This document shows positions 3,115 through 18,797 of a DNA stretch of 18,797 nt, piece after piece. Under the pieces are notes generated by a model. The model worked only from the letters and a program-made list of their open reading frames with translations. It did not search any database and was not told the DNA's origin. This DNA is from a bacterium UBP1_UBA4771 (GTDB taxonomy: Bacteria > Krumholzibacteriota > Krumholzibacteriia > Krumholzibacteriales > Krumholzibacteriaceae): the NCBI GenBank assembly GCA_002403295.1, contig DHHN01000209.1:10489-29285 (forward strand). Direction: 5' to 3'. Made by a program: the position numbers and the translations under genes. How positions within the stretch are numbered: the first letter of the stretch is position 1; the number at the start of each line of letters is the position of its first letter.

Positions 3115-3888
3115 TCAGCTGATGCTCCCCTTGACGTACTCGCGCGTCATCGCCTGTTCCGGCTCCTCGAAGATCTTCCCCGCCGGCCCGTGCTCCACGA
3201 GTTCGCCGAGGTACAGGAATATCACGTAGTCGGCGAGACGCTTCGCCTGACGCAGGATATGCGTGACGACGACGATCGTGTACGAGCTCTTCAGCTCCCG
3301 GAAGCGCTCCTCGATGCGCCTGCTCGAGACCGGATCGAGCGCCGAGGTCGGCTCGTCGCAGAGAATGATCTCGGGCTCCACGGCGAGCCCTCTCGCCAGG
3401 CACAGCCGCTGTTGCTGGCCGAGCGACAATTTCGACGCCGGCGCATGCAGCCGGTCCCGCACCTCGTCCCAGAGACCCGATTCCCTGAGCCGGCGCTCGA
3501 CGATCCGGTCGAGCTCGCCGCGCTTCTTCGTCCCGTGGATTCGCGGACCGTAGGCCACGTTGTTATAGATCGACATCGGCAGCGGATACGGCTTTTGCGA
3601 AAGGAGGCCCATCTTTTTCCTGACCCGCGTGACGTCCACGCCGGGCGCGTAGATATTCTCGCCGTCGACGAGCACTTCGCCCGAAACCGCGACGCCGTCG
3701 GCGAGATCGACGAGGCGGTTGAAGGATTTGAGCAGCGTCGTCTTGCCGCAGCCCGACGGCCCGATGATCGCGGTAATCGTGCGCCCCGGTATGTCGACCG
3801 ATATGTTCTTCAGGGCGTGTTCGCGCCCGTAATAAATGTTCAGATTTTTCACTCTGATCGGCGGATCGTGATCCATTGCGCCTCTCAT
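3115..3888 (-). CDS. pstB: Phosphate ABC transporter ATP-binding protein PstB
   Basis: Walker A GPSGCGKTT, ABC signature LSLGQQQRL and Walker B ILCDEPTSALD are present, together with the PstB-typical N-terminus (IRVKNLNIYYG). The listed 530-aa ORF 3115-4707 is an artifactual N-extension. The start ATG at 3888 overlaps the pstA stop (ATGA). 257 aa. Confidence 0.9.
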   Translation of the reverse strand: MRGAMDHDPPIRVKNLNIYYGREHALKNISVDIPGRTITAIIGPSGCGKTTLLKSFNRLVDLADGVAVSGEVLVDGENIYAPGVDVTRVRKKMGLLSQKPYPLPMSIYNNVAYGPRIHGTKKRGELDRIVERRLRESGLWDEVRDRLHAPASKLSLGQQQRLCLARGLAVEPEIILCDEPTSALDPVSSRRIEERFRELKSSYTIVVVTHILRQAKRLADYVIFLYLGELVEHGPAGKIFEEPEQAMTREYVKGSIS

Positions 3889-4736
3889 TTCACGATGTGC
3901 TTCGTGAGATTTCTCGCGAGAACCCTCGAAACGAGGCTGATCGCAAGGACGATCAGCGTGAGAATGAGCGCCGACGCGTAGGCCCGGTTTTGAACCTCGG
4001 GAAACGGAGTCCCGAGCTGATAAAAGATCGCGAGCGGCAGCGTCGCCGCCGGGCGAAGAAGGGACGACGGCACGGCGTCGGTAAAGCCCGCCGTGAACAT
4101 GACGGAGGCCGCGTCCCCGATCCCCCTGCCGAAGGCGATGAGCGTCGCCGTCACGATCCCCGGCACGGCCTGCCGCGCCACGACCTTGAGGGCCGTCTCG
4201 AGCCGCGTCGCGCCGAGGGCGTACGACGCCTCGAAAAGCTCGTGTGGAACGGTCCGGACGACCTCGTCCATGGCCCTGCTCATGATGGGGAGAATGAGGA
4301 GCGCGACGGCGATTATGCCGCCGAGGAGCGACGCCTTGAGCCCGAACAGAAGCATGATGGTGAATCCGAAGGCTCCGTAGACGATCGATGGAACGCCCCA
4401 GAGGACGTCGAGGGAAAACCTCGTGAAGAGCACGAAGCGGGAGCGTTTCTTCGCGTACACGTTGAGATAGAGCACGATGGGGACGCTGAGGAAGAGCGCG
4501 AGCGCCGTTGCTCCGCCGGCGAGATAGAGCGAGCCGACGATCGCGTTCAGAATTCCCCCTTCCTTCCCGAGGTAGTATCCCCCCCTCGGCGTCTGGGTGA
4601 GCATCGCCATGTTCAGGGAGGGCAATCCTTTCGCGAGGATCGTCGCCATTATGAGAAAAAGACTCAGGAAGAGCGCGAAGGCGGCGGCGGCCGCGAGGGT
4701 CTTCCACACGAACTCTTCCACCTTTCTCGCGTCCAA
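3885..4736 (-). CDS. pstA: Phosphate ABC transporter permease PstA
   Basis: C-terminal 285 codons of the listed ORF 3885-5732. It has multiple TM helices and an EAA-like loop (ASYALGATRLETALKVVARQAVPGIV). There is no in-frame ATG near the expected start. I place the start at TTG 4734-4736, 12 nt after AAGGAG, with GTG 4719-4721 as the alternative. The exact start is uncertain. Confidence 0.75.
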   Translation of the reverse strand: MDARKVEEFVWKTLAAAAAFALFLSLFLIMATILAKGLPSLNMAMLTQTPRGGYYLGKEGGILNAIVGSLYLAGGATALALFLSVPIVLYLNVYAKKRSRFVLFTRFSLDVLWGVPSIVYGAFGFTIMLLFGLKASLLGGIIAVALLILPIMSRAMDEVVRTVPHELFEASYALGATRLETALKVVARQAVPGIVTATLIAFGRGIGDAASVMFTAGFTDAVPSSLLRPAATLPLAIFYQLGTPFPEVQNRAYASALILTLIVLAISLVSRVLARNLTKHIVK

Positions 4737-4738
4737 CG

Positions 4739-5626
4739 CTATTGCACGCTCCTTTCGACCCGCAGCAGGATCGCGCGCGCCGCGACGTTGACGAGAAGCA
4801 CCACCATCAAGAGCGCGAGCGCCGCGAGAAGCAGCGCCGAGTCGTACATCGGCACGGAGAGCATCTCGCCGTACTTGTTCGCGATGAGCGCCGGAAGGGG
4901 ATAGGCGGGATCGAATACCGTCTTCGGAACGGCGGCCACGTTGCCGGCGACCATGAGCACGGCCATCGTCTCCCCGAAGGCCCGCGACAATCCGAGGACG
5001 ACGGCGGCAATGACGCCCGGCATCGCCTTGCGCATGACGACGTGCCGTATCGTCTGCCACCGGGTGGCGCCGAGCGCGAGAGACGCCTCTCTCACTTCGT
5101 TCGGGACGGTTTTGAGGACTTCGACCGAAACGTGAACGATGACCGGAAACACCATGACCGCGAGAACGATGCCCGCCGCGAGCACGCAGTAGCCGCTCGA
5201 CGAGACGCCGGCGAGCGGAGCGACGTGATTCTTGATGAGCGGCACGACGACGAGCACTCCCCAGACGCCGAACACGACCGACGGTATGCCGGCGAGGAGA
5301 TCGATGAGCGGGGCGGTCCATTCCCGCAGTCTGCGGGGGGCGTACTCCGCCAGATAGATCGAGGCGAGGAGACAGAGCGGGATCGCGATGGCGACGGCCA
5401 CGGCGGTCACCCACAGCGTGCCCATGATGAACGTGAAGAGCCCGAACTCGCCCCGCAGGGGATGCCATGAGCTCGAAAAGAGGAGCTCCGACAAGGGCTT
5501 CGCCGCGAGTATCGGCCGCGATCTCCCGTATAGTCCGAGGATCATGGCGAAAACGACGAGTCCGGGGACGCCCGCGAGCGCCAGCATGCCCGCGCCGGCG
5601 AGCTTGTCTTTGACGAGCCTGATCAT
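4739..5626 (-). CDS. pstC: Phosphate ABC transporter permease PstC
   Basis: 295 aa, polytopic. The motif LGLSRAFGETMAVLMVAGN matches the PstC GETMAV signature. It starts 6 nt after the pstS stop. Confidence 0.85.
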   Translation of the reverse strand: MIRLVKDKLAGAGMLALAGVPGLVVFAMILGLYGRSRPILAAKPLSELLFSSSWHPLRGEFGLFTFIMGTLWVTAVAVAIAIPLCLLASIYLAEYAPRRLREWTAPLIDLLAGIPSVVFGVWGVLVVVPLIKNHVAPLAGVSSSGYCVLAAGIVLAVMVFPVIVHVSVEVLKTVPNEVREASLALGATRWQTIRHVVMRKAMPGVIAAVVLGLSRAFGETMAVLMVAGNVAAVPKTVFDPAYPLPALIANKYGEMLSVPMYDSALLLAALALLMVVLLVNVAARAILLRVERSVQ

Positions 5627-5632
5627 TGCTTC

Positions 5633-6607
5633 TTACTCTTCGAGCTTCCGCAGCTCTGCCTCGAGCCGCTCCCGGCTCAGGCCCACGTACCCCGCCTCGG
5701 ATACGTACCGTTGCCCGTCGGTCAAAACCCACGTGATGAATTCGATCGCGGCTCGCCGCGCCGGCCTTCCCCGCGAAACGAAGTACAGATCCCTCGCGGG
5801 CGGCGAGGGATAGCGGCCCGAGGCGATCGCCGCGACGAGCGTGTCGCGGTTGCCGTAGAAATCCTCGTGCGGGTCGAGCCGGCCGTTGCCGTCGAGATCG
5901 ATGGGGAGCACCCGCAGCCCGGCGATCGGCCGCTTCGTCGCCGCGTCGTACGCGAAGTTTATATTGTTGAAACCGATCCCCAGGGCGTCCCTCTGTATCG
6001 CCTCAGCCACCCCCGGATCGCCGTACACCCCCACGCCGCGCATGTCATCCTGCTGCTTCCCGAGATACTTCGCCCACGTTTCGGCGGCGCCGCACGCGTC
6101 GGAGCGGGTGTAGACGCGGATGGGGCGCGGAGCGGCGCCCGGAACGACGTCGCTCCAACTCGCGGTCTCGCCCGTCACCCATATGCCGATCAACGATTCC
6201 CGTTTCGCTCCCGCGCGCAGCAGATCCCCGAGGGCCGGATTGTTTTCGCTCACCGTGGGAACGACGGCGTCCACGACCACCGCGACGCACCAGGCCCCCT
6301 TCTCGATCTCGGCCGGATAGATGTCGCGCGAAACGCCGCCGAAATCCGCCACGCCGGCGAGCGCATCCGCCATGCCCTTCCCCGCCCCGCCGGCCGAGAC
6401 ATCGATCCGTATCCTCGGATGGATCGCCTCGAATTCCTCGGCCCACCTGACGGTCATGGGGTAGAGCGCCCACGCGCCCGAGATCGTTATCGTGCCTTCG
6501 AGATCGTTCGAGTCCGATTTCTTATCGTCGCCGCCCCGGCAGCCGGAGCCGGCGAGAACGACGATCGCGAGCAACCCGCAGATCGCGCGCTTCGTTCCAT
6601 CCATCAT
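5633..6607 (-). CDS. pstS: Phosphate-binding protein PstS family, predicted lipoprotein
   Basis: Periplasmic-binding-protein-like sequence with a PstS-type fold. The lipobox is LAGSGC after a hydrophobic h-region. I chose the start at ATG 6607 (MMDGTKRAIC...) because GGGAG lies 6 nt upstream. The listed ORF extends to 6667 through two further in-frame Met codons. Confidence 0.8.
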   Translation of the reverse strand: MMDGTKRAICGLLAIVVLAGSGCRGGDDKKSDSNDLEGTITISGAWALYPMTVRWAEEFEAIHPRIRIDVSAGGAGKGMADALAGVADFGGVSRDIYPAEIEKGAWCVAVVVDAVVPTVSENNPALGDLLRAGAKRESLIGIWVTGETASWSDVVPGAAPRPIRVYTRSDACGAAETWAKYLGKQQDDMRGVGVYGDPGVAEAIQRDALGIGFNNINFAYDAATKRPIAGLRVLPIDLDGNGRLDPHEDFYGNRDTLVAAIASGRYPSPPARDLYFVSRGRPARRAAIEFITWVLTDGQRYVSEAGYVGLSRERLEAELRKLEE

Positions 6608-6689
6608 CCGCTTCTCCCGCGTCGACATATTGCAGCGATGGTAAATCGCGGGGCAGGGGTATTTCAACCACTATCGAAGAGCGGCGGCG

Positions 6690-6738
6690 GGACGCCGCAG
6701 GGACGCCGCAGAATAGGAACGCCGCAGGGACGCCGCAG
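6690..6738. promoter_or_regulatory. Direct-repeat array in the pstS / operon-A divergent intergenic region: 4 copies of the 11-bp unit G(G/A)ACGCCGCAG, arranged as a 27-bp tandem duplication
   Basis: The sequence reads gGACGCCGCAGGGACGCCGCAGAATag then gAACGCCGCAGGGACGCCGCAGAATgc. 11-bp (one helical turn) phased direct repeats are the architecture of OmpR/PhoB-family response-regulator sites. This is not the E. coli Pho-box sequence. Confidence 0.4.
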
Positions 6739-6765
6739 AATGCTGCTGAACGGGCGGGGGGCGTA

Positions 6766-6774
6766 TGGTATAAT
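6766..6774 (+). promoter_or_regulatory. Consensus extended -10 element TGgTATAAT, about 56 nt upstream of the gene A start codon
   Basis: TG-n-TATAAT is read directly at 6766-6774, on the plus strand and oriented toward 6831. The repeat array lies 30-80 bp upstream. There is no good -35 (CTGAAC). Confidence 0.4.
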
Positions 6775-6830
6775 TCATGTTCGGCACGCATCGGATGTCC
6801 GGGGCAATCGCACGCCAAAGGAGCCCTTGC

Positions 6831-9122
6831 ATGAAGAGAACGAAATCGGCCGTCTTCGCGCTGTGCGCGACAGCCGCCGTCGCGGCCTTTCTCGTCGCCT
6901 CGATCAAGCGCGTCCCTCCCGGAAACGAGGCGCTGCGGATTTCGAGGGGGGGACAGCCGCAGATTCTGGGATCGGGCTGGCATTTCGTACGCCCGCTGTC
7001 GGGAGCATTCGCCGTTTATCCCGTCGGCGAGGTCTCCGTGCGATTCCCGCAGGACGGGACCGCCGCCGTGCTCCTCGGGGACGGACGCGAAACGGCGGCC
7101 GCTCTCTCCTTTCGGTTGAAGATCCCCCGCGGCTCGGCGCAAAGCCTGCACGAAATCCTCGGGAGGAACTTCTCCGCCGGCTTCGATCGTATCGTCCGCG
7201 ACGCCGTCGAAATTCGGGCCGCGTCGTGGGAAACCGGCGCCGGGGGAGAGGCGCCCGAGGCCTTCGCTCGAGCCGTCGCCTCGGACCTCGCGGAAAGCCT
7301 CTCCGGCGCGCGCGTCGAAATCCTCGCCGCGAGGGTCGAGTCCTGGGGCGATGCCGCCGGCGAGGCGCCGGCGGCCGAGGCGAACGTCTCCGCGGCGCCC
7401 CTTCGGAAGATCGTCTTCATCGGGGTCGACGCCGGCGACTGGGGAATCATCAATCCCCTGATCAGGGAAGGAAGGCTCCCCAACTTCAAGAAAATCGTCG
7501 AGGGCGGCGCCACGGGCCCCCTTCGATCGATGGATCCGATGATCTCCCCGCTTCTCTGGACGACGATGGCGACGGGCAAGCTCCCCGAGGCGCACGGGAT
7601 CTTGAGCTGCACCGCCGTCGATCCCGCGACCGGGGCGCAGATCCCGATCACGCGGATGTACCGCAAGGTCGACGCCTTTTGGAACATGATGAGCGATTAC
7701 GGGCGGAGCGTCGCCGTCATCGGCTGGCTCGCGACCTATCCCGCCGAGACGATACATGGAACGATGGTCACCGACCGGGTCGGCTACCTCGCGTATGCGG
7801 CGACGCTCGGACAGGGCGACGCGCCCCTTCCCGGCGCCGTCTCCCCCCCCGAGCGCGCGGAAGAGATCAATGGGCTCATCGTTCGAAGCAGGGATGTTTC
7901 CTTCGACGAGATGAAGCGTTTCATGCATGTCGACAAGGCCGAGCTCGAGCGCAGCCGCACCGACCGGTTCGACGCCCACAACCTCGTGAACGACATGATC
8001 CTTATATACGCCACGGCGTCGAGCTATCGCGCGATCGCCCTCCACCTGCTCGAGAAGGATCGTCCGGATTTCCTCGGCGTCTATTTCGAGCTCGTGGACG
8101 CGGCCGGTCATCTATTCATGCCGTTCGCGCCGCCGCGGAGAGAGAGCGTGAGCGAAGAGGACTACCGGAAGTACAAGGACGCGATGACGGAGACCTACGT
8201 GTTTCAGGACCGGATCATCGGCGAGCTGCTCGAGCGGTGCGACGACAATACGGTCGTCATGATCACGAGCGATCACGGCTTCAAGAGCCTCGACGCGAGA
8301 CCCACCGCGGACGCCGGGATCACGGGCGGCCACGCCCTGCAATGGCACAATCCCGAGGGGATCGTCTGTCTCTACGGCCCGGGCATCCGCCGCGGTGGCC
8401 GGATCGAGGGCGCCTCCATCATCGACGTCACGCCGACGATACTCGCGCTCGCGGGGTTCCCGCGCGTCGAGGACATGCCGGGGCGCGTGCTCGGCGAGGC
8501 GTTCGAACCGTCGCTCGCTTCATCCGTCAATCCGGCCTCGGTCGCGACGCTCCAGCGGCGCCGCGCCCCCGAAAGCGCGCCCGTGCCGCGGGGAGGCGCC
8601 CTCGAGGACGCCGAGATGAGAAAGCTCGAGGCCCTGGGCTACATCACGGTCGAGAATCCCGACGCCCTCAACAATCTCGGACAGCGCTACCAGAATCAGG
8701 GCGAGTTCGAAAAGGCGATCGCGGAGTTCAAGAAGGCGCTCGCCCTGCGGCCCAACCACGCGGGAACTCTCAATAACCTCGGCGTATCCTACGGCAGGCT
8801 CAAGCGCTATCCGGAAGCGGAGGAGGCCTTCCTGCGGGCGCTCGAGGTGAAGCCGAAGGATATGTTCGCGATGAACAACCTCGCCGTGCTGTACATGGAG
8901 AGCGGACGGCTCGACCAGGCTCGACGCTACGCCGAGCAGGCGGCCGCGACGGAGCCGAAGTACGCGAACGGGCGCTATTCCCTCGGCGTGATCTACGCGC
9001 ATGCGGGAGAGTTCGACCGGGCGACGAAGGAGTTCGAGGCGGCGCTCGCGATCGAACCGGACAACGCGCGTTTCCGCGCCGCGCTCGAACAGTGCCGGCG
9101 GGATGCGGGCGCCCGGAGATAA
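6831..9122 (+). CDS. Multi-domain membrane protein (763 aa): N-terminal TM anchor, SPFH/band-7-like domain, alkaline-phosphatase-superfamily catalytic domain (type I phosphodiesterase / nucleotide pyrophosphatase-like) and C-terminal TPR repeats
   Basis: Start ATG 6831 with AGGAG 7 nt upstream. The N-terminus MKRTKSAVFALCATAAVAAFLVASIKR is hydrophobic. The following segment (VPPGNEALRISRGG..ILGSGWHF) resembles the HflK/C SPFH entry. AP-superfamily motifs are IGVDAGDWG (metal Asp), ISPLLWTTMATG..HGI (Ser/Thr nucleophile region), FELVDAAGH and ITSDHGF. About 5 TPR units span roughly 8650-9110 (LNNLGQRY.., LNNLGVSYG.., MNNLAVLYM.., RYSLGVIYA..). Confidence 0.8.
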   Translation: MKRTKSAVFALCATAAVAAFLVASIKRVPPGNEALRISRGGQPQILGSGWHFVRPLSGAFAVYPVGEVSVRFPQDGTAAVLLGDGRETAAALSFRLKIPRGSAQSLHEILGRNFSAGFDRIVRDAVEIRAASWETGAGGEAPEAFARAVASDLAESLSGARVEILAARVESWGDAAGEAPAAEANVSAAPLRKIVFIGVDAGDWGIINPLIREGRLPNFKKIVEGGATGPLRSMDPMISPLLWTTMATGKLPEAHGILSCTAVDPATGAQIPITRMYRKVDAFWNMMSDYGRSVAVIGWLATYPAETIHGTMVTDRVGYLAYAATLGQGDAPLPGAVSPPERAEEINGLIVRSRDVSFDEMKRFMHVDKAELERSRTDRFDAHNLVNDMILIYATASSYRAIALHLLEKDRPDFLGVYFELVDAAGHLFMPFAPPRRESVSEEDYRKYKDAMTETYVFQDRIIGELLERCDDNTVVMITSDHGFKSLDARPTADAGITGGHALQWHNPEGIVCLYGPGIRRGGRIEGASIIDVTPTILALAGFPRVEDMPGRVLGEAFEPSLASSVNPASVATLQRRRAPESAPVPRGGALEDAEMRKLEALGYITVENPDALNNLGQRYQNQGEFEKAIAEFKKALALRPNHAGTLNNLGVSYGRLKRYPEAEEAFLRALEVKPKDMFAMNNLAVLYMESGRLDQARRYAEQAAATEPKYANGRYSLGVIYAHAGEFDRATKEFEAALAIEPDNARFRAALEQCRRDAGARR
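6900..7420 (+). other. SPFH/band-7-like domain region of protein A (tentative)
   Basis: Pattern match from memory to the HflC/HflK N-terminal region. No profile search was possible. Confidence 0.35.
8650..9110 (+). other. TPR repeat domain of protein A
   Basis: Repeating approximately 34-aa units are present. They show the W-LG-Y / A-F-A-P TPR signature residues (NLG..Y....EAI..F..AL...P). Confidence 0.7.
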
Positions 9123-9237
9123 AGTCCTTGTGAACGCCGCCGGCGCACGCCATCATAGAGAGTTGCGCATCCTCGTAACGGGCCGCGCAGCGTCATGACG
9201 AGCCGCGAGCCGTTCCGACAGCGGGAGATTGCATGCG

Positions 9238-10413
9238 ATGATACAGGCCCACGGCGGACAATTGGTGAATCGCCTCGCCGGCGAGCACGAACGGGCGGCG
9301 CTCGTCGCGCGCGCCGAGACGCTCCCTTCGATCACGCTCAACCGCAGGGAGGTTTCCGATCTCCACCTCATCGCCGTCGGCGCCATGAGCCCGCTCGAGG
9401 GGTTCATGGTCCGGGACGAATACGAGAGCGTTCTCGACGCCATGCGGTTGCCCCGCGGCCTCCCGTGGACCCTTCCCGTCACCCTGTCGATCAAGGACGC
9501 CGACGCCGCCCGGACGCGCCCGCCGTTCGAGGCGGCGCTCCGCGACGAGCGCGGAGCCGCGCTCGGGGTCATGCGCGTCGACGACGTGTACGAGGTCGAC
9601 CGGGAACGCGAGGCCGAGAAGGTTCTCCTCACGACCGACGGCGCGCATCCCGGCGTTCAATATCTCCGCTCGATCGAGGGCGCGTACGCCGGCGGACCGG
9701 TCACGCTCTTCGAGCGGATGGTCGACCCGCAATTCGAAACGTTCCACCTCGACCCGCGGGAAACGCGGATCCTCTTCAAGACGAAGGGCTGGGAGCGGGT
9801 CGTCGCCTTTCAGACGCGCAATCCGATCCACCGCGCGCACGAGTACCTCCTCAAATGCGCGCTCGAGATGACGGACGGGCTCCTCATCCATCCCATCATG
9901 GGGGAAACGAAATCGGACGACATTCCCGCCGCCGTCCGCATGCTCTGTTACCAGGCGATCGTGAGCGAGTATTTTCCGAAGGACCGGGTGGTTCTCTCGG
10001 TCTTTCCGGCCGCGATGCGTTACGCGGGGCCGCGCGAGGCGATCTTTCACGCGATCCTGAGAAAGAACTACGGCTGCACGCACATGATCATCGGGCGGGA
10101 TCACGCGGGCGTCGGCTCGTACTACGGCACCTATGACGCGCAGCGCATCTTCGACGCGTTCGAGCCGGACGAGCTGGAGATCGTCCCCATGATGTTCGAG
10201 CACGCCTTTTACTGCACGAAGTGCGCGGCGATGAGCTCTCCCAAGACGTGCCCCCACGGGAAGGACGCGCACCTGCAGCTCAGCGGAACGCGCGTTCGCG
10301 AGATGCTCGCGCGGGACGAGGCGCTCCCGCCCGAGTTCACCCGGCGGGAGATCGCCGAGGTGCTCGAACGCCATTATGCCGCGCGCGCCGCGAAGCGCCC
10401 GCACGAATCCTGA
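9238..10413 (+). CDS. sat: Sulfate adenylyltransferase (ATP sulfurylase), homo-oligomeric Sat type
   Basis: The motif QTRNPIHRAHE (the HxxH motif of ATP sulfurylase) is present. A PUA-like N-terminus (MIQAHGGQLVNR) and GRDHAGVG are also present. I chose the start at ATG 9238 because the listed ORF's first codon at 9229 is TTG. The C-terminal motif Cys-x2-Cys-x8-Cys-x-His resembles the Zn site of Thermus-type Sat. Confidence 0.9.
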   Translation: MIQAHGGQLVNRLAGEHERAALVARAETLPSITLNRREVSDLHLIAVGAMSPLEGFMVRDEYESVLDAMRLPRGLPWTLPVTLSIKDADAARTRPPFEAALRDERGAALGVMRVDDVYEVDREREAEKVLLTTDGAHPGVQYLRSIEGAYAGGPVTLFERMVDPQFETFHLDPRETRILFKTKGWERVVAFQTRNPIHRAHEYLLKCALEMTDGLLIHPIMGETKSDDIPAAVRMLCYQAIVSEYFPKDRVVLSVFPAAMRYAGPREAIFHAILRKNYGCTHMIIGRDHAGVGSYYGTYDAQRIFDAFEPDELEIVPMMFEHAFYCTKCAAMSSPKTCPHGKDAHLQLSGTRVREMLARDEALPPEFTRREIAEVLERHYAARAAKRPHES

Positions 10414-10429
10414 GCCGGAGAATGGAGCG

Positions 10430-11821: not shown

Positions 11822-11868
11822 ATCGCGGGATGCGGCATCGCGAAACGCCGTTTCACAGGGAGATGACA

Positions 11869-12471
11869 ATGAAAGGTTTCACGCTCTGGTTCACCGGCCT
11901 TCCCTGCTCGGGCAAGTCGACGCTGGCGCGGCGCGTTCAGGAGATCCTCCTCGAGCGCGGGATGAACGTCGAGCTCCTCGACGGCGACGAGGTGCGGCAG
12001 AACCTTTGCAAGGGCCTCGGATACTCCAAGGAGGATCGGGACACGAATATCCGGCGCATCGGCTACGTGTGCAAGCTCCTCAGCCGCAACGGCGCGGTCG
12101 CCGTCGCCGCCGCCATCTCCCCGTACCGGGAGATCCGCGAGGAGAATAGACGCGCCATCGCCGCCTACGTCGAGGTCTACGTGAAGGCGCCGATCGAGGT
12201 GCTCGCGAAACGGGACGTCAAGGGGATGTACAAAAAGGCGCTTGCCGGCGAGATAACGAACTTCACCGGCGTCTCCGACCCGTACGAGGAACCCGAGCGC
12301 CCGGAGATCCTGATCGAATCGGACAAGGAAACGGTCGAAGACAGCACCGCGAAGATCATCCGCACGCTCGAAGTCATGGGTCTCATTCCGGGAGCACCCG
12401 CCGAAAGCGAGTATTCACCGGAGGAAGAAGAGAAGATCAAGACCCGGCTCAAGGATTTGGGATACATCTAG
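11869..12471 (+). CDS. cysC: Adenylylsulfate (APS) kinase with a 25-aa acidic C-terminal extension ending in LGYI
   Basis: P-loop WFTGLPCSGKSTLA is present. LDGDEVR.NLCKGLGYSKEDRDTNIRR aligns with E. coli CysC ([27 protein letters not shown]). KGMYKKALAGEITNFTG corresponds to KGLYKKARAGELRNFTG. GGGAG lies 7 nt upstream of ATG 11869. Confidence 0.9.
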   Translation: MKGFTLWFTGLPCSGKSTLARRVQEILLERGMNVELLDGDEVRQNLCKGLGYSKEDRDTNIRRIGYVCKLLSRNGAVAVAAAISPYREIREENRRAIAAYVEVYVKAPIEVLAKRDVKGMYKKALAGEITNFTGVSDPYEEPERPEILIESDKETVEDSTAKIIRTLEVMGLIPGAPAESEYSPEEEEKIKTRLKDLGYI

Positions 12472-12485
12472 AGGGAGCGGGCACG

Positions 12486-13790
12486 CTGCGCACACGGAGG
12501 AAGAAGGTCGCATGCGTCGTCGGTCTCGACGGCGTCCCCTTCTCGTTCATCCGCGGCATGATCGATTCCGGCGTCATGCCGAGGATGAAGGAGATCGTGT
12601 CGCGGGGCCGCATGGCGCCGATGACCGCCTCCCTTCCTGAAATCTCCTCGGTGAGCTGGTCAACGTTCATGACGGGCCTCGATCCCGGCGGCCACGGCAT
12701 CTTCGGCTTCACCGATTTCAAGGATGCGAGCTACGCGCTGCGCTACCCCTCCTTCCGCGACCTCGGGGCGCCCACGATCTGGGACCGGCTCGGCGAACGG
12801 CGGATGAGGAGCGTCGTCATCGATCAGCCCGCCACGTACCCCGCGCGTCCCATTCCCGGCGTTTTGATATCGGGCTTCGTCGCGCTCGACCTCGAGAAGG
12901 CGGTCGCTCCCCGCTCCTACCTCGCCGCACTTCGAGGCATGAACTACGAAATCGACATCGATGCGGCGAAATGCAGGGACAACCCGGACGAGCTCTTCTC
13001 CGCTCTCGGCAAGCGCCTCGCCGAAAGACGCTCCGTCGTCGACGCCCTGTGGGAGAAGGAAGAGTGGAATCTCATGGAGATCGTCGTAACGGGCACCGAC
13101 CGGCTCCACCATTTCATGTGGGACGCCTGCGAGGACGCGAACCATCCCCGCCGCGAGGACGTGCTCGCCTATTACCGCGCGATCGACGATTTTCTGGGGC
13201 ACGTGTACGAGAAGTTCCGCCGCCTCGACGCGGGCGGCAATTTCTTCATGCTCTCCGATCACGGCTTCTGCGCCGCGAAACGAGAGGTGTACGTGAACGC
13301 CGTCCTTCGCGCGGAGGGATTTCTCGATCTCGCGCCCGGCGCATCGTCCCTCGAGGGGATCACGGAGCGCACGAAAGCCTTCGCGCTCGATCCCGCGCGC
13401 ATTTACATCAACCGCGCGGGGCGATTCCCCCGGGGACGCATCGACGAGGCGGACGCGAAGTCCCTGCTCGAGGATCTCGCGGCGATATTCGACGCGCTCG
13501 AGGTCGGGGGAGAGCGGGTCGTGCGGCGGCGGTTCACGGGCCGAGAAGCGTATTCGGGACCCTTCGCCCGCCGCGGCCCGGATCTCGTGCTCGTTCCGCG
13601 AAACGGCTTCGATCTCAAGGGCCGCCCCGGCGCCGCGGAGATATCGGGCGAGAGGCGCTTTCAGGGAATGCACACGTGGGAAGACGCCTTCTTTTTCTCG
13701 CTCGACCCGGCGGCGATCGAAGATCCGAACGATCTCAACATCGTGGACGTCCCGAAAACGATCTTGAGGAGCATCGATGTCGAACCATAG
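12486..13790 (+). CDS. Alkaline phosphatase superfamily protein, PPase/PDE-like (paralog C, cytosolic). The start codon is uncertain; this call is a CTG start with the first ATG at 12558
   Basis: Homology to the paralog N-termini (KKVACVVGLDGVPFSF vs KKLAVIGLDCLTPQF) extends 15-24 codons upstream of the first in-frame ATG. The only start-like in-frame codon upstream is CTG 12486, 8 nt after GAGGGAG. Motifs are ISSVSWSTFMTG..GHGIF, HHFMWDACEDANH and LSDHGF. Confidence 0.7.
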   Translation: MRTRRKKVACVVGLDGVPFSFIRGMIDSGVMPRMKEIVSRGRMAPMTASLPEISSVSWSTFMTGLDPGGHGIFGFTDFKDASYALRYPSFRDLGAPTIWDRLGERRMRSVVIDQPATYPARPIPGVLISGFVALDLEKAVAPRSYLAALRGMNYEIDIDAAKCRDNPDELFSALGKRLAERRSVVDALWEKEEWNLMEIVVTGTDRLHHFMWDACEDANHPRREDVLAYYRAIDDFLGHVYEKFRRLDAGGNFFMLSDHGFCAAKREVYVNAVLRAEGFLDLAPGASSLEGITERTKAFALDPARIYINRAGRFPRGRIDEADAKSLLEDLAAIFDALEVGGERVVRRRFTGREAYSGPFARRGPDLVLVPRNGFDLKGRPGAAEISGERRFQGMHTWEDAFFFSLDPAAIEDPNDLNIVDVPKTILRSIDVEP

Positions 13791-15858
13791 AGGAACGCGC
13801 GCGGTCCGCGTTTCGATATGCGCCATCCTGTGCGCGCTCGGCGCGCCGGCCGCCGCGCACGCCTATATCGGCCCCGGCGCCGGCTTCGCGCTCGTTTCGT
13901 CGTTCCTCTCTTTCGTGCTCGCGTTCTTCGCCGCGTTTCTCGCCCTCTTGACCTTTCCGCTCCGCATGCTCTGGAAGAGGATGAGGCGCAAGCGCGCGCC
14001 GCGGGCGCCGCGCGCGGACAAGGTGATCGTCCTCGGGCTCGACGGCCTCGACCCCGCGATCTGCGAGCGCCTCATGGTCGCCGGCCGACTCCCCAACCTT
14101 TCGCGCCTCGCCGCCGCGGGAACGTTCCGCCGGCTCGGCACCTCGACGCCGGCGATGTCACCCGTCGCGTGGTCCACCTTCAGCACCGGCGTCGACGCCT
14201 CGCGCCACGGCATCTTCGATTTTCTCGCGCGGGATCCGAACACGTACCTCCCCGTCCTTTCCTCGAGCCGCGTCACCGCGTCGAAGCGGTTTCTGCGGCT
14301 CGGCCCCTTTCGGCTGCCGCTCGGGAAAGGAAGCGTCCGCTTTCTCCGAAAGAGCACGAGCGTCTGGAAGGTGCTCGGCGAATACGGAATCTTCAGCACC
14401 GTTCTCCGGGTCCCGATCACCTTTCCCCCGGAGCCATTGAACGGCGTCATGCTCTCCGGCATGTGCGCGCCCGATCTGCGCGGGACGATGGGATCGTTCA
14501 CGTATTTCCGCCGGGGCGAATCGGGCGGCAGGATCGGCGGCATGGTGATCGCCCTCGAGGAGAAGGACGGCGTCCTTCGGGCGTCCCTTCCCGGCCCGGA
14601 GAGCCCGGTCGCCCGCGAAACCTTGAAGCTCCCCCTCGAGATCCGCGTCGACGCGAAGAGGCGGGGCGCCGAGATTCGCGTGTCCGGCGCGCGTTTTTTC
14701 CTCCCCGAGCGGGCGTACTCGCCGTGGATCCGCCTCGCCTTCAAGGCCGCGCCGGGCGTCACGCTCCATGGCATCGCGCGGTTTTTCATCACGCGCCTCG
14801 ACGGCGACTTCGGGCTCTACGTATCGCCGATCCACATCGATCCAGAAAAACCCGCCATGCCGGTCTCCTACCCCGCGTTCTACTCGGTGTATCTCGCCAA
14901 ACGCCTCGGCGGGCCGTTCGGAACGCTCGGCCTCGCCGAGGACACGTGGGCGCTGAACGAGGGGGTTCTCGACGAAGAGGCCTTTATCGCGCAGGCGTAT
15001 CTCTTCCACCGCGAGCGCGAGGCGATGTTCCTCCACACGCTGCGCACGCAGAAGAAGGGCCTCGTCGCGTGCGTCTTCGATCTCAGCGACCGCATGCAAC
15101 ACATGTTCTTCCGGTATCTCGCGGATGACCTCGACCCCGGCGCGGCGGCGCCGGAGCGCCGCGAAACGCTCGACGAGATGTACCGCGAGATGGACGCGCT
15201 CGTCGGCAAGACGTCGGCGTTCGTCGACGGCCGGACGGCGCTCTTCGTGATCTCGGATCACGGCTTCAAGGCATTCAGGCGCGGCGTCGATCTCAACGTC
15301 TGGCTCATGCGGAACGGATATCTCGCGCTGCGCGCCGACGCGCGCGGTGACGAATTCCTCCGCGACGTCGATTGGTCGAAGACGCGGGCCTACGCGCTCG
15401 GGCTCGGGGGCGTGTATCTCAACATGAAGGGACGCGAGCGGCACGGAACGGTCGAGGCATCGGAGGCCCCCATGCTGAAAGAAGAGATCGCATCGAAGCT
15501 CCTCGCGCTCGGGGATGAGGGCGGCGGGGCGCCGGTCGTGAGCCGCGTGTTCGACACCGCTCGGGACTTCACGGGCCCGTACCGCGCGGAGGGACCGGAT
15601 CTCATCGTGGGACTCGCGGAAGGCTACCGGATTTCCTGGGACTGCGCGAGGGGGCTCGTGCAGGACGCCGTCATCGAGGATAACGAGAAGAGCTGGAGCG
15701 GCGATCACTGCATCGATCCCGCGCTCGTTCCCGGCGTTCTCTTTTCGAACATGCGCGTCGAGGCAATCGACCCGAATATCGCGGACATCGCGCCGACCAT
15801 TCTCGGGCTCTTCGGCATCGATCCGCCGCGATACATGACGGGGAGGGATCTCCTGTGA
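13777..15858 (+). CDS. Alkaline phosphatase superfamily protein, PPase/PDE-like (paralog D, 693 aa) with an N-terminal two-helix membrane hairpin and polybasic stretch
   Basis: ATG 13777 lies 5 nt after GAGGAG and overlaps the gene C 3' end by 14 nt. The N-terminus has two hydrophobic segments (VSICAILCALGAPAAAHA; FALVSSFLSFVLAFFAAFLALLTF) followed by RMLWKRMRRKRAPRAPRADK. Motifs are VIVLGLDGL, MSPVAWSTFSTG..RHGIF, ISDHGF and WSGDHC. Confidence 0.85.
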   Translation: MSNHRGTRAVRVSICAILCALGAPAAAHAYIGPGAGFALVSSFLSFVLAFFAAFLALLTFPLRMLWKRMRRKRAPRAPRADKVIVLGLDGLDPAICERLMVAGRLPNLSRLAAAGTFRRLGTSTPAMSPVAWSTFSTGVDASRHGIFDFLARDPNTYLPVLSSSRVTASKRFLRLGPFRLPLGKGSVRFLRKSTSVWKVLGEYGIFSTVLRVPITFPPEPLNGVMLSGMCAPDLRGTMGSFTYFRRGESGGRIGGMVIALEEKDGVLRASLPGPESPVARETLKLPLEIRVDAKRRGAEIRVSGARFFLPERAYSPWIRLAFKAAPGVTLHGIARFFITRLDGDFGLYVSPIHIDPEKPAMPVSYPAFYSVYLAKRLGGPFGTLGLAEDTWALNEGVLDEEAFIAQAYLFHREREAMFLHTLRTQKKGLVACVFDLSDRMQHMFFRYLADDLDPGAAAPERRETLDEMYREMDALVGKTSAFVDGRTALFVISDHGFKAFRRGVDLNVWLMRNGYLALRADARGDEFLRDVDWSKTRAYALGLGGVYLNMKGRERHGTVEASEAPMLKEEIASKLLALGDEGGGAPVVSRVFDTARDFTGPYRAEGPDLIVGLAEGYRISWDCARGLVQDAVIEDNEKSWSGDHCIDPALVPGVLFSNMRVEAIDPNIADIAPTILGLFGIDPPRYMTGRDLL

Positions 15859-17828
15859 GAATCGCGCACCTCAAGGTTCTGCTCGCGGGCGTCGCGTTGC
15901 TCGCGATCGACGGCGGCGCTTTTCCGGCGGGGACGGCCGGCGCCTCGCCGCGCGAGCGAAGCGTCATCATTCTCGGAATCGACGGAATGGATCCCATTCT
16001 GCTCGAACGTTTCATCGAAAAGGGACGCATGCCGGTTTTCGAAAAGCTCGTGCGGGAGCAATCGTATTCGCTTCTCGAGACCTCCATCCCTCCCCAGAGC
16101 CCCGTCGCGTGGTCGAACTTCATCACCGGCATGGATCCCGGCGGGCACGGCATCTTCGACTACATCGGGAGGGATCTCGAGACGTACCGGCCCTCCTTCT
16201 CGCTCACGCACGTCGACGAGCCGGGACGCGTGCTGCGCGTCGGCGGCTGGGTGATTCCCGTCTCCGCCGGCAAGGCGACTCTTCTCAGGCGGGGGAAGGC
16301 CTTCTGGCAGATACTCGACGAGCACGGCGTGCCATACACGATATCGAGAGTGCCGTCCAACTTTCCGCCCGTGCCGTGCAAGGGCCGGACGCTCTCGGGC
16401 CTCGGAACGCCCGATCTCGCGGGAAGCTATGGAACGTTTTCGTATTTCACGAACGATCCCGCCTTCGCCGGCCTCGAGGTGAGCGGCGGCTCGATATATC
16501 CCGTCGCCGTCGAGAACGGCGCGGTCTCCGCCGTTCTCATCGGTCCGCCGAACACGCTGAGAACGAGCGCCCCCCTTCTCGAAGCGCCCTTCATCGTGCA
16601 TGCCGACGCCGCGCGCGGCGCCGCGAAGATCGTCGTGGGAAAGACGGAGATGATCCTCGCGGTCGGTGAATGGAGTCCGTGGACGGAGGTCTCGTTCGAC
16701 CTCATCGGCCCGCTCCACACGCTCAAGGGCATCTGCCGTTTCTATCTGAAATCGATCGATCCGCACTTCGGCCTCTACGTGACGCCGCTCAACATCCACC
16801 CCGCGCATCCCGCGCTCCCGATCTCCACGCCATCGAGGTACGCGGCCGAGCTCTCCCGCGCGATCGGACACTTCTACACGCAGGGAAACCCCGAGGACAC
16901 GAAGGCGCTCGAGTGGGGCGTCTTCGACGACGCGGAGTTCATCCATCAGGCGAGACTCGTTCTCGGCGAGCAGCGGCGGATGCTCGACGCGGCCCTCGAC
17001 GAGCATGACGGCGGCTTGCTCTTCTTTTACGTTTCGACGCTCGATCTCTGCCAGCACATGCTGTGGAGAAACATGGACCCCGCCCACCCCGCTCATTTCG
17101 AAGAGGCCGCGGCGCACAAGGACGAAATCGAAAACCTCTACGTCGAAATGGACCGCCTCGTCGCGCACGTGCTCGAGCGGATCCCGCCCGATGCCGCGTT
17201 CATCATCATGTCGGACCACGGCTTTTCTCCTTACTACCGGAAATTCAACCTCAACACGTGGCTCCTCGAGAACGGCTATCTCGAGCTCGTCGATCCGGCC
17301 GCGATGGAGCGCTCGCGGCTCTTCGAAAACGTCCACTGGAGAAAAACGAAGGCGTACGGCGTGGGCTTCAACGGACTCTACGTGAACCTTCGCGGACGCG
17401 AGGGCAAGGGGATCGTGCGCGCGGGCGCCGAATGCGAAGAGCTGCTCCGCGAAATCGGCGACAAGCTCCTCGCCGCGAAGGATCCCGAAACGGGGGCCTC
17501 GCCGATTCGGAGCGTGTATCGCGCGAGCGAGATCTATCACGGCGCGGAAGCGCGGAACGCCCCCGACCTCGTCATCGGATACCGGCGGGGGTATCGCTGC
17601 AGCGATCAATCGGTGCTCGGAGATTTCACGCGGGACGTCTTCGGTTGGAACATGGACAAATGGAGCGGCGATCACTGCATGGCCGCGGAGGAGGTTCCCG
17701 GCATCCTCATCGCGAACAGGAAACTGCGCGTGAGCGATCCGCGGCTCGGCGATTTCGCGGCCACGATCCTCTCGCTCTTCGGCATCGACGGCTCGAAGGC
17801 GCCGGCATCGAGCCGCTCGATCTTCTAA
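15855..17828 (+). CDS. Alkaline phosphatase superfamily protein, PPase/PDE-like (paralog E, 657 aa) with a predicted Sec signal peptide
   Basis: GTG start at 15855, in a GTGA overlap with the gene D stop. GGGAGGG lies 7 nt upstream. The N-terminus MRIAHLKVLLAGVALLAIDGGAFPAGTAGA-SP is signal-like. Motifs are VIILGIDGM, SPVAWSNFITG..GHGIF, MSDHGF and WSGDHC. It is closest in sequence to paralog D. Confidence 0.85.
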   Translation: MRIAHLKVLLAGVALLAIDGGAFPAGTAGASPRERSVIILGIDGMDPILLERFIEKGRMPVFEKLVREQSYSLLETSIPPQSPVAWSNFITGMDPGGHGIFDYIGRDLETYRPSFSLTHVDEPGRVLRVGGWVIPVSAGKATLLRRGKAFWQILDEHGVPYTISRVPSNFPPVPCKGRTLSGLGTPDLAGSYGTFSYFTNDPAFAGLEVSGGSIYPVAVENGAVSAVLIGPPNTLRTSAPLLEAPFIVHADAARGAAKIVVGKTEMILAVGEWSPWTEVSFDLIGPLHTLKGICRFYLKSIDPHFGLYVTPLNIHPAHPALPISTPSRYAAELSRAIGHFYTQGNPEDTKALEWGVFDDAEFIHQARLVLGEQRRMLDAALDEHDGGLLFFYVSTLDLCQHMLWRNMDPAHPAHFEEAAAHKDEIENLYVEMDRLVAHVLERIPPDAAFIIMSDHGFSPYYRKFNLNTWLLENGYLELVDPAAMERSRLFENVHWRKTKAYGVGFNGLYVNLRGREGKGIVRAGAECEELLREIGDKLLAAKDPETGASPIRSVYRASEIYHGAEARNAPDLVIGYRRGYRCSDQSVLGDFTRDVFGWNMDKWSGDHCMAAEEVPGILIANRKLRVSDPRLGDFAATILSLFGIDGSKAPASSRSIF

Positions 17829-17851
17829 CCGGCGGAAAGGGGCGGGGTCAG

Positions 17852-18046
17852 ATGTTCGACCCGAAGGTCAAGATAGACAAGGAGCTCTACGCGAAGCTCA
17901 AGAGAGCGGCCGAGGTCGCGGGCTATTCGTCGGTCGATGAGTTCATTATCCACGTTCTCGAGAGAGAAGTGTCGAAGCTCGGCGGCGACGAGGCGACCGA
18001 CGAAGAGATACGAAAGAAACTCGAGGGGCTGGGGTATATCTCCTGA
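17852..18046 (+). CDS. Small (64 aa) ribbon-helix-helix (CopG/Arc/MetJ-like) putative DNA-binding protein with an acidic C-terminal tail ending ..KKLEGLGYIS
   Basis: ATG 17852 lies 23 nt after the gene E stop. KVKIDKELYAKLKRAAEVAGYSSVDEFIIHVLEREV fits the RHH beta-alpha-alpha pattern. GC3 bias is coding-like. It sits inside the longer listed frame 17063-18046. Confidence 0.6.
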   Translation: MFDPKVKIDKELYAKLKRAAEVAGYSSVDEFIIHVLEREVSKLGGDEATDEEIRKKLEGLGYIS

Positions 18047-18057
18047 TTCGTGAGATT

Positions 18058-18797
18058 ATGGAACTCATTTCGAAGATCATAACGGCCGTGCTCGACGCGC
18101 TGCTCATCCCGTTCGGCGAGGGACGTCATGCGCTCGGCCTCGCGTGGCTCTCGCTTCTCACGGGCGTGGGCATGGCGCTCGTCTTCAAGCTCACGTCCGA
18201 CACAAGAAAGATCAAACAGGCCAAGGATCTCGGCAAGTCGTTCATCCTCGAGATGCGGATCTATCGCGACGACGCGGGAACGATCTTCGCCTCGTTTTTC
18301 CGCTCGCTCCGGGCGAATCTCGTCTACCTGCGCCACATGCTGCCGCCGTTCCTCGCGATCGTCGTTCCCGCCGCCCTCATTTTCATGCAGCTCGACGAGC
18401 GGTACGGCCGAAGCCACCTTCCCGCCGGTTCGACGACCGTTCTCTCCGTCTTTCTCGCGGAGGGCGCGGGGGCGCTCGCGGAGCGCTCTTCCGTCGCCTG
18501 CGGCCCGGGAGTCGCCGTGGAGGCCGGTCCGGTATGGATCAGCGGGACGCGCGAGCTCGCCTGGCGTCTCAGGATCGACGCTCCCGGCACGCACGATGTC
18601 GCGATCTCGATCGATGGAAGCGAGTATGTCGTGCCGCTCGTCGCCGAGACGGCGCACCGGATGATCGGTCACGCGCGAAGCTCGTCCGTCATCGAATCGC
18701 TTCTTCATCCCGGCCTTCCGCCCATCCCCGACGGCTCGCCCATCGAGACCGTGCGGCTTCGCTATCCCGGGGCCCGCTATCCGCTCCTCTTCTGGCG
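18058..18797 (+). CDS. Hypothetical membrane protein with at least 2 TM segments; 3' end lies beyond the window
   Basis: The frame is open from ATG 18058 to the window end, with strong GC3 bias. It is not in the supplied track because no stop occurs in the window. Hydrophobic segments are ALGLAWLSLLTGVGMALVF and MLPPFLAIVVPAALIFM. The listed antisense ORF 17923-18708 is therefore probably spurious. Confidence 0.55.
   Translation, partial: MELISKIITAVLDALLIPFGEGRHALGLAWLSLLTGVGMALVFKLTSDTRKIKQAKDLGKSFILEMRIYRDDAGTIFASFFRSLRANLVYLRHMLPPFLAIVVPAALIFMQLDERYGRSHLPAGSTTVLSVFLAEGAGALAERSSVACGPGVAVEAGPVWISGTRELAWRLRIDAPGTHDVAISIDGSEYVVPLVAETAHRMIGHARSSSVIESLLHPGLPPIPDGSPIETVRLRYPGARYPLLFW

Follow-up and report, generated by a model that had tools for sequence, protein, structure and literature searches.

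A variant Pst-family importer beside a conserved sulfate-activation and alkaline phosphatase superfamily gene cluster: two possibly sulfur-linked modules

We analysed an 18,797-nucleotide stretch of DNA (hereafter the window) from the bacterium UBP1_UBA4771 of the Krumholzibacteriota (GenBank assembly GCA_002403295.1, contig DHHN01000209.1, positions 10,489 to 29,285). In this window an operon for an ATP-binding cassette (ABC) importer of the Pst family lies divergent from a gene cluster for the sulfate-activation enzymes Sat and CysC and for enzymes of the alkaline phosphatase (AP) superfamily. The closest named relatives are metagenome-assembled genomes (MAGs) of Candidatus Eisenbacteria, Latescibacteria and Krumholzibacteria. 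A preliminary description had treated the two operons as one divergent phosphate/sulfate unit with a possible phosphorus-sparing response to starvation for inorganic phosphate (Pi). Our comparisons show that the conserved unit is the sat/AP cluster alone and that the adjacency of the transporter is lineage-specific; a functional link between the two operons through sulfate, not phosphate, is plausible.

Gene content of the locus and the conserved sat/AP cluster

The window has a G+C content of about 65%, and reading frames were picked by the GC content of their codon positions. The gene calls were cross-checked on six independent metagenome contigs with identical proteins, which gave the same calls, and families were assigned by comparing Pfam and NCBIfam profile scores with curated cut-offs. 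On all these counts the gene content and coordinates of the preliminary description were right. Loci in other genomes and metagenomes carry our own numbers (L001 and so on).

Sulfate activation is encoded on the plus strand by sat (9238..10413; ATP sulfurylase, 391 aa, PF14306 and PF01747) and cysC (11830..12471; adenosine 5'-phosphosulfate (APS) kinase, 213 aa as called, PF01583), the product of the latter ending in the tail EYSPEEEEKIKTRLKDLGYI. The genes for making 3'-phosphoadenosine 5'-phosphosulfate (PAPS) are therefore present as described, both proteins scoring above curated cut-offs: Sat reaches 533.7 bits with NF003166 (cut-off 387), and CysC 256 with NF002059 (cut-off 244) and 221.7 with TIGR00455 (cut-off 138.7). 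Five plus-strand AP paralogues accompany them, all members of PF01663 (92–152 bits against a cut-off of 23). AP1 (6831..9122, 763 aa) stands ahead of sat and combines an N-terminal anchor, an SPFH/Band-7 domain, the PF01663 domain, an internal KLEALGYI motif and a tetratricopeptide repeat (TPR) domain. AP2 (10430..11821, 463 aa) is a soluble protein with a Thr nucleophile that resembles the nucleotide pyrophosphatases/phosphodiesterases (NPPs). It is followed, after cysC, by the soluble AP3 (12483..13790, Ser nucleophile), by AP4 (13777..15858, 693 aa) with two N-terminal hydrophobic segments and by AP5 (15855..17828, 657 aa) with a signal-peptide-like N-terminus. The series closes, on the same strand, with a 64-aa protein similar to ribbon-helix-helix (RHH) proteins (17852..18046; weak RHH_1 and TacA1 matches), which ends in EEIRKKLEGLGYIS, and with a membrane protein, Mem (18058..18797), of 273 aa in full and four hydrophobic segments; its gene is interrupted by the window end, and no Pfam or NCBIfam family matched it.

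The cluster was surveyed in 80 species-representative genome loci from many phyla, whose AP2 homologues show 50–86% identity and onto which the window proteins were mapped by tblastn; many of these contigs end early. Genes for sat and/or cysC stand beside AP2 in 52 of the 80 loci, AP2 being almost always between or next to them, while AP3 occurs in 33, AP4 in 26 and AP5 in 20. The complete sat-AP2-cysC-AP3-AP4-AP5 set is found in 16. Mem follows AP5 in 10 species loci, the 64-aa RHH-like open reading frame (ORF) is kept after AP5 in other phyla, and in four loci (L019, L025, L027, L051) the AP4-AP5-Mem block is inverted or moved yet still adjacent. Across 14 full loci the median identity is 62% for Sat, 63% for AP2, 71% for CysC, 53% for AP3, 54% for AP4, 49% for AP5 and 32% for Mem. 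Hundreds of species, mostly uncultured, carry the module, among them Latescibacterota, Krumholzibacteriia, Armatimonadota, Acidobacteriota, Poribacteria, Chloroflexota, Brocadia and others. The sat-AP2-cysC-AP3-AP4-AP5 set is a widespread, uncharacterised and conserved module, and in other lineages it mostly occurs without the variant transporter.

Indeed, the transporter and AP1 adjoin the cluster in only two of the 80 loci, L008 and L037, both from the closest relatives, and the same arrangement recurs in the metagenome relatives L092 and L096. The single divergent unit proposed earlier thus exists here, across 202 bp, but the pairing is confined to the lineage of the window. In Latescibacterota the cluster is instead divergent from a flippase-like LPG_synthase_TM gene. 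Orthologues of AP1, 45–67% identical, occur in Eisenbacteria, Latescibacteria and Krumholzibacteria; on the contigs of Latescibacterota and Krumholzibacteriia the AP1 gene adjoins genes for a family 2 glycosyltransferase, an epimerase and iPGM and not sat or pst; in Latescibacterota it lies far from sat. L008 (DATKWS010000070.1), which has the full pst-AP1-sat-AP arrangement, is labelled Patescibacteria group bacterium and has 56–83% protein identity to the window. This label is probably wrong, as its cluster resembles that of Eisenbacteria-type relatives.

The flanks of the cluster were examined by Pfam on 122 ORFs, leaving out the lineage of the window and relatives of the Latescibacterial type. 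Among these ORFs are further PF01663 and PF00884 paralogues, epimerases, family 4 glycosyltransferases (GT4) and PlsC-type acyltransferases; pst or pho families are absent from the 25 most frequent. In the contexts we looked at, neither the cluster nor its immediate neighbourhood contained a cysH or sulfite reductase gene. The acyltransferase, epimerase, glycosyltransferase and flippase-like neighbours in other lineages point weakly to a modification of the membrane or envelope, and modification of the envelope or of lipids with activated sulfate is a reasonable guess for the role of the module. The epimerase and GT4 neighbours in other phyla suggested a route to sulfoquinovosyldiacylglycerol through SqdB and SqdX, but in NCBIfam these gave only weak, generic epimerase and exopolysaccharide-glycosyltransferase matches and fitted no specific model; the window itself has no epimerase-family or GT4 gene.

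In three loci a conserved block lies directly upstream of sat (L018 124-2453, L023 4870-8532, L024 4840-8493). Its first gene encodes an epimerase-family protein (about 360 aa) and its second a PlsC-type acyltransferase protein of about 400 aa with weak OlsF-like similarity; in L023 at least, a further protein of about 360 aa, assigned to no family, precedes them. The block hints at a lipid connection.

The transporter operon and its genomic context

The divergent intergenic spacer (6629..6830, 202 bp) holds two divergent promoter-like sites and a set of repeats. A sigma-70-like site, TTGAAA-18-TACCAT, faces the transporter operon on the minus strand (6667-6638), and an extended -10 element, TGGTATAAT, faces AP1 on the plus strand (6766-6774) and is kept in relatives. 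Between them the 11-nt direct repeat GGACGCCGCAG occurs in four copies (6690-6738), arranged as two doublets 5 nt apart. Regulators of the OmpR/PhoB type use a direct-repeat geometry with an 11-bp period, and the repeats were considered as a Pho box or another operator of this type. We reject them as a conserved site because their copy number differs among near-identical contigs (three on L001, four in the window and on L003) and because a relative with 86% identity, L037, has none, although it retains the flanking TTTCAACCACTATCG and TATGGTAcAAT elements. The array is a recent, hypervariable tandem expansion between divergent promoters and not a conserved operator. A promoter region shared by both operons, as previously described, does exist in this genome; in L008 and L092, however, the gene of an Rrf2 regulator separates the transporter operon from AP1. 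A scan of the window and six related loci at Rfam gathering thresholds returned two tRNAs only, neither of them within the window, and no riboswitch or other RNA element.

The operon is read on the minus strand. It begins with the gene of a variant PstS-family substrate-binding lipoprotein (SBP; 5633..6628, 331 aa, PF12849) and continues with a PstC-like permease (4739..5626, 295 aa), a PstA-like permease (3885..4736, 283 aa) and a PstB-like ATPase (3115..3876, 253 aa, PF00005), the last called identically on L001-L003. Its earlier designation as pstSCAB is not borne out in full. The permeases reach the PstC and PstA cut-offs (TIGR02138, 269.5 bits against 196.45; TIGR00974, 199.2 against 193.45), but the SBP lies well below those for PstS (TIGR02136, 97.6 against 206.6; TIGR00975, 59.9 against 205) and its phosphate ligands are replaced; the ATPase falls 2.4 bits short (TIGR00972, 340.8 against 343.2). 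Annotation pipelines would nevertheless call the operon pstSCAB because the permeases pass curated cut-offs. The variant subfamily is large, with at least 555 confirmed relatives in one metagenome scan, and its named relatives include Fidelibacterota, Neomarinimicrobiota, Omnitrophica and Eisenbacteria-like lineages.

The ligand site is where the SBP departs most clearly from PstS. Its invariant motifs are SGAWALYP, AGGAGKG, VSR and RSDACGAA. When it is aligned with E. coli PstS and with PstS proteins of known structure, GAWA falls at the position of GSTS, GGA at that of GSS and ACGA at that of GSGT. At the ligand positions of E. coli PstS, which we take to be those given by Luecke and Quiocho (1990), all 21 subfamily sequences compared carry T10W, F11A, S38A, D56S, S139C and T141A and keep R135 and G140. 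In the solved PstS of SAR11, phosphate is held by six side-chain hydroxyls, those of Ser32, Ser33, Thr34, Thr61, Ser83 and Thr175 (PMC12421899). Only the equivalent of Ser83 survives in our SBP, so that five of the six hydroxyls are lost, and these substitutions are invariant within a subfamily whose members are 58–71% identical across phyla. According to the alignments, the site has lost groups able to accept a hydrogen bond from protonated phosphate and has gained a Trp. The sulfate-binding protein has a site made of donors only, which the SBP site would resemble.

We examined the transporter context on three long contigs and 80 metagenome loci, in which the operon invariably runs from the SBP through two permeases to the ATPase. 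In most lineages the operon is headed by the gene of an Rrf2 regulator whose three cysteines are conserved; it lies upstream in about half of the loci (Pfam detects it in 25 flanking ORFs and tblastn in about 40 loci), for instance at L092 9260-9673, L008 ~5648-6130, L094 6585-6986 and L095 6535-6936 and in about 40 of L096-L175; the gene is missing from the window and from L037. Sub-typing this regulator as CymR or IscR failed, both models scoring equally and below their cut-offs. An OprP-family porin, which Pfam likewise detects in 25 flanking ORFs, often has its gene between those of the regulator and the SBP.

Sulfur-assimilation genes are direct neighbours of the transporter in at least five lineages, whose SBPs are 57–73% identical and whose GC contents range from 37 to 65%. 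A cysD gene (326 bits against a cut-off of 195) and a cysN-like gene lie upstream on the same strand in L143, L157 and L133. In L100 cysC (225 bits) lies 50 nt upstream of the transporter, in L105 cysH (172 bits against a cut-off of 154) lies downstream, in L094 sat is convergent with the transporter, and in the lineage of the window sat and cysC are divergent from it. The L094 operon is itself unusual, with an additional ABC ATPase, a CobW-type GTPase and an iron-sulfur (PF04060) protein inserted between the SBP and the permeases (7989-10163), and with the ATP sulfurylase gene after the operon.

These results bear directly on the proposal that a Pho-regulon PstSCAB shares Pi-responsive control with the sat/AP operon, so that Pi starvation would exchange phospho-headgroups or polymers for sulfated ones. 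The divergent layout across a short spacer speaks for it, as do the matches of the permeases to PstC and PstA, the 11-bp period of the direct repeats, the presence of known Pho-regulon enzymes in the AP superfamily and the lipid and glycan genes near the cluster in other phyla. On the other hand, the adjacency is limited to one lineage, the repeats vary in number and vanish as described, the SBP is without most canonical phosphate ligands, and the transporter type recurs beside sulfate-assimilation genes with Rrf2 as its usual adjacent regulator. PhoU, sought with the E. coli protein as the only query, had no match in the 87 loci with the variant transporter, and we noticed no pair of the PhoB/PhoR type in those contexts that we inspected. 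We therefore regard this proposal as very improbable, and the phosphorus-sparing response is not borne out. E. coli PstSCAB-PhoU itself is alike in having an SBP, two permeases and an ATPase, in the equivalog-level match of PstC and PstA and in being the source of the kind of protein, PstS, to which the nearest solved relatives of the SBP belong; it differs in its phoU gene, in its SBP ligands and in its partners, which here are Rrf2 and the porin. Uptake of a sulfur oxyanion by this Pst subfamily would be the most economical reading of the combined ligand-site and neighbourhood data, and such a role would account for its place beside sat and cysC here.

The AP-superfamily enzymes and the shared C-terminal tail

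All five AP paralogues keep the GxD, nucleophile, DxxxH, SDHG and terminal His motifs, that is, a bimetal site with Ser or Thr. AP2 has Thr as its nucleophile, whereas AP1 and AP3–AP5 have Ser; the nucleophile motifs are PPITVPAW, PEISSVSW, PAMSPVAW, PPQSPVAW and PMISPLLW. None of the five has the formylglycine sulfatase motif C/S-x-P-x-R at the nucleophile position. We also considered true sulfatases, and with them a cycle of sulfation and desulfation, among the tail-bearing PF00884 neighbours in other loci and discarded the idea, as these do not have the motif at this position either.

The preliminary description spoke of membrane-associated AP enzymes. This applies to AP1, AP4 and AP5, which have N-terminal hydrophobic segments, but not to AP2 and AP3, which are soluble. 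AP2 has an NPP-like three-dimensional core, its bimetal and Thr site is complete, and many of its arginines are invariant. Sequence searches of the PDB gave a marginal arylsulfatase match for AP2, a weak PhnA match for AP3 and no relative for AP4. The N-terminus of AP4 (window 13777-13960; L088 13317-13600) comprises a signal-like segment, an invariant AHAY[IV]GPGAGF, a second hydrophobic helix and an Arg/Lys-rich stretch, and it resembles a re-entrant hairpin anchor. Hydropathy and the positive-inside rule suggest that the catalytic domain of AP4 faces the cytoplasm, while AP5, with its signal-peptide-like N-terminus, is predicted from hydropathy to be exported or anchored. In both AP4 and AP5 a large insertion splits the Pfam match into two stretches.

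The start of AP3 is unusual. Its first ATG (12558) lies downstream of the metal-binding VVGLDG motif, no in-frame ATG, GTG or TTG lies ahead of that motif, and the full PF01663 motif set is obtained only with a start upstream of the first ATG. The sequence AGGGAG, similar to a Shine-Dalgarno site, stands 5 nt ahead of ACG (12483), with CTG (12486) next; the AGGGAG and ACG are retained in L096, and the Latescibacterial orthologue has an ATG start ahead of the GLDG motif. Translation of AP3 probably starts at one of these two non-canonical codons. A fusion of CysC and AP3 by frameshift was ruled out, as the frame of one relative to the other is not the same in L096 as in the window.

The enzyme that would consume PAPS does not stand out in the cluster. 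A regular-expression search for the sulfotransferase 5'-phosphosulfate-binding (5'-PSB) motif (PKxGTT-like), a pattern search and not a profile search of every ORF, gave three matches in the 4553 ORFs of the 80 loci, all judged to be spurious ORFs, and sulfotransferase families of the PF00685/PF13469 type are not among the 25 most frequent Pfam families of the 122 flanking ORFs. It follows that the PAPS consumer would be an AP enzyme or an unrecognised protein. In AP-superfamily chemistry a Ser or Thr nucleophile is poorly suited to sulfuryl transfer. It is equally possible that APS or PAPS is attacked at its 5'-phosphate, in the manner of NPPs, and that sulfate leaves.

Comparison with known systems sets these enzymes apart. 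Xanthomonas NPP, ENPP4/6/7 and PhnA have 13–18% identity to them, and AP2 and AP3 differ from these in being cytoplasmic, AP4 and AP5 in their insertion, and the group in its setting in a PAPS operon and in the C-terminal tail described below. LtaS, EptA/MCR-1 and OpgB are PF00884 members whose N-terminal domains span the membrane several times and whose donors are periplasmic phospholipids. Here one or two hydrophobic segments are present, at least AP4 would have its catalytic domain in the cytoplasm, and the donor pathway linked to the enzymes is that for PAPS. The pathways of NodH and of mycobacterial Stf0 with CysNC likewise keep sulfate-activation genes in an operon with presumed PAPS consumers; unlike them, our 80 loci yielded no PF00685/PF13469-type sulfotransferase or 5'-PSB motif in the pattern search and the census of frequent families described above.

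Several proteins of the cluster share a further feature. An acidic amphipathic stretch (…EEEEKIKTRLKDLGYI) leads into the motif L-x-x-LGY[ILVM], which has 111 matches in the 4553 ORFs, where shuffled sequences give 0.8; in 101 cases the match is no more than two residues away from the C-terminus. The consensus of this tail is [YF][ST]xEEEExIKxRLxxLGY[ILV]. In the window it is found at the end of CysC (12400-12471), at the end of the 64-aa ORF (17990-18046) and internally in AP1 (~8640-8690), just ahead of the TPR domain, and it is also found in L007-L086. The tail carriers are CysC (39), proteins shorter than 110 aa (23, including RHH-like ORFs before sat and after AP5), AP2 (18, mostly without an adjacent cysC) and other proteins (20), of which those sampled are PF01663 or PF00884 paralogues and short APS-kinase-like proteins. 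The tail looks like a docking peptide that would tie components together; its (D/E)xxLxxRLxxL spacing presumably resembles that of the ESCRT-III MIM1 helices that bind MIT or TPR-like bundles. It also offers a sequence handle for finding further components of the system.

In MAGs of Melainabacteria and Caenarcanales, the gene after AP2 encodes a P-loop protein of 150–166 aa that resembles APS kinases, though very divergent, and has an LGY tail (L044 11410-11907, L067 11424-11873). The pairing of AP2 with a kinase therefore reaches beyond recognisable cysC.

The cluster could also serve plain assimilatory activation. PAPS would then go to a CysH encoded elsewhere, AP2 would replace CysQ as the 3'-phosphatase for PAP (3'-phosphoadenosine 5'-phosphate) or act as a pyrophosphatase that pulls the Sat reaction, and AP1 and AP3–AP5 would be general phosphoesterases, with no sulfation involved. 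The conserved sat-AP2-cysC order, the evolution of AP2 at the rate of Sat and CysC, its cytoplasmic location, complete active site and invariant arginines and the failure to find a sulfotransferase motif all agree with this, and non-orthologous PAP phosphatases are known in other organisms. However, AP3, AP4, AP5 and Mem are linked to sat and cysC across phyla, even when rearranged, the tail system common to the AP3–AP5/Mem group and CysC argues for one pathway, and no reductive gene (cysH or sulfite reductase) accompanies the cluster in the contexts we looked at. We consider this alternative unlikely.

Sulfate supply as a possible link between the modules

Our tentative preference, held with considerable doubt and built on sequence comparisons, is that two sulfur-related modules are neighbours in this lineage and are coupled by the supply of sulfate for activation. 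The first module (3115-6628) would be a remodelled Pst-family ABC importer for sulfate or a related sulfur or selenium oxyanion, which in relatives may be controlled by the three-cysteine Rrf2 protein and not by the Pho regulon, the regulator gene having been lost in the window. In the second (9238 to the window end, with AP1 ahead of it here), Sat and CysC, which match above their cut-offs, make APS and PAPS. AP2 may act on a universal adenine-nucleotide intermediate or by-product of this step (PAP, pyrophosphate, APS or PAPS); a universal nucleotide is its most likely substrate because the protein is soluble, as constrained as Sat and CysC, and fixed in place between their genes. The soluble AP3, the membrane-hairpin AP4 on the cytoplasmic face, the exported AP5 and Mem would act on an acceptor in the membrane or envelope, and the amphipathic RLxxLGY tail on CysC, the RHH proteins and the AP paralogues would dock them to a common partner. 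On this reading phosphate starvation would not be what links the two modules; the supply of sulfate would.

A bolder version appears doubtful to us. It holds that the Pst subfamily has become an importer for sulfate (or a sulfur or selenium oxyanion) under an Rrf2 regulator with three conserved cysteines, and that it feeds a conserved pathway of many phyla in which AP enzymes with Ser or Thr nucleophiles replace canonical sulfotransferases. At the inner membrane these enzymes would use PAPS to make or alter a sulfated lipid or a glycan of the envelope, within an assembly held together by RLxxLGY tails.

Several observations weigh against the sulfate reading. For the transporter, the permeases still exceed the PstC and PstA equivalog cut-offs, every relative of the SBP in the PDB by sequence is a phosphate binder, the porin belongs to a family named for its phosphate selectivity, sulfur genes flank only about 8–10% of the transporter loci, and the search for PhoU relied on one query. 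For the cluster, the AP enzymes may not act on sulfate at all, given the poor aptitude of Ser and Thr for sulfuryl transfer, and the envelope and lipid neighbours (acyltransferase, GT4, epimerase, LPG_synthase_TM) occur in some lineages only. A rival reading is that the transporter is a divergent but ordinary phosphate importer whose position beside the sat/AP cluster is meaningless. In its favour, PstC and PstA are above equivalog cut-offs with PstB so close to its own, phosphate is what every structural relative found for the SBP by sequence binds, an OprP-family porin is in the operon in 25 loci and about 90% of transporter loci have no sulfur gene next door; the SAR11 PstS, moreover, binds phosphate despite a non-canonical ligand set (PMC12421899). 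Against mere chance stand the five independent lineages, in which both the sulfur gene and its arrangement differ from one lineage to the next and which far exceed what random placement would produce, as well as the lack of a PhoU match in any locus searched and the loss of five of the six hydroxyl ligands, invariant across the subfamily. We judge chance neighbourhood to be somewhat unlikely.

An importer for sulfate derived from the Pst family would have no counterpart among the transporters of a published overview, which names SulT, SulP, CysP/PiT, DASS and CysZ and no Pst type (PMC5840216). The SulT system (Sbp/CysP-CysUWA) is comparable in combining, as proposed here, ATP-driven sulfate uptake with a periplasmic binding protein, but there is no family-level homology: the CysT and CysW models score 43–49 bits on our permeases against cut-offs of 246–329, and the SBP belongs to PF12849, not PF13531. 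A closer parallel is CysP of B. subtilis, a sulfate permease of the PiT family that is encoded beside sat and is without the residues critical for phosphate transport (PMC5840216). Here too a member of a phosphate-transporter family without key phosphate residues lies next to sat; CysP differs in being a secondary carrier with experimentally shown sulfate transport, whereas ours is a primary ABC importer of the Pst family for which sulfate is deduced. A sulfate importer of the TauE family was recognised only recently, by operon context and complementation (PMC11535334). If the sulfate reading is true, the Pst subfamily would form a new uptake class beside SulT, SulP, CysP/PiT, DASS, CysZ and TauE, in parallel to the PiT-derived CysP, and metagenome surveys over-count phosphate acquisition and under-count sulfate uptake. 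The second module ties PAPS synthesis to enzymes not known to use PAPS, and its product could reveal new sulfur or phosphoester chemistry of the envelope. Our literature searches brought up no relevant work on a sat/cysC/AP-family cluster, on COG3379, on sulfotransferases with an AP fold or on Rrf2-pstS.

Two further features lie to the left of the transporter, both on the minus strand. One is a DUF2867 gene. The other is an NfnAB/SudAB-like pair (551-2930) directly downstream of the transporter and on the same strand, made up of a GltD-like NADPH oxidoreductase and an FAD/NAD-binding subunit similar to those of sulfide and dihydroorotate dehydrogenases. Such a pair also adjoins the variant transporter in an unrelated lineage (L101 12313-14642), where the SBP is 60% identical.

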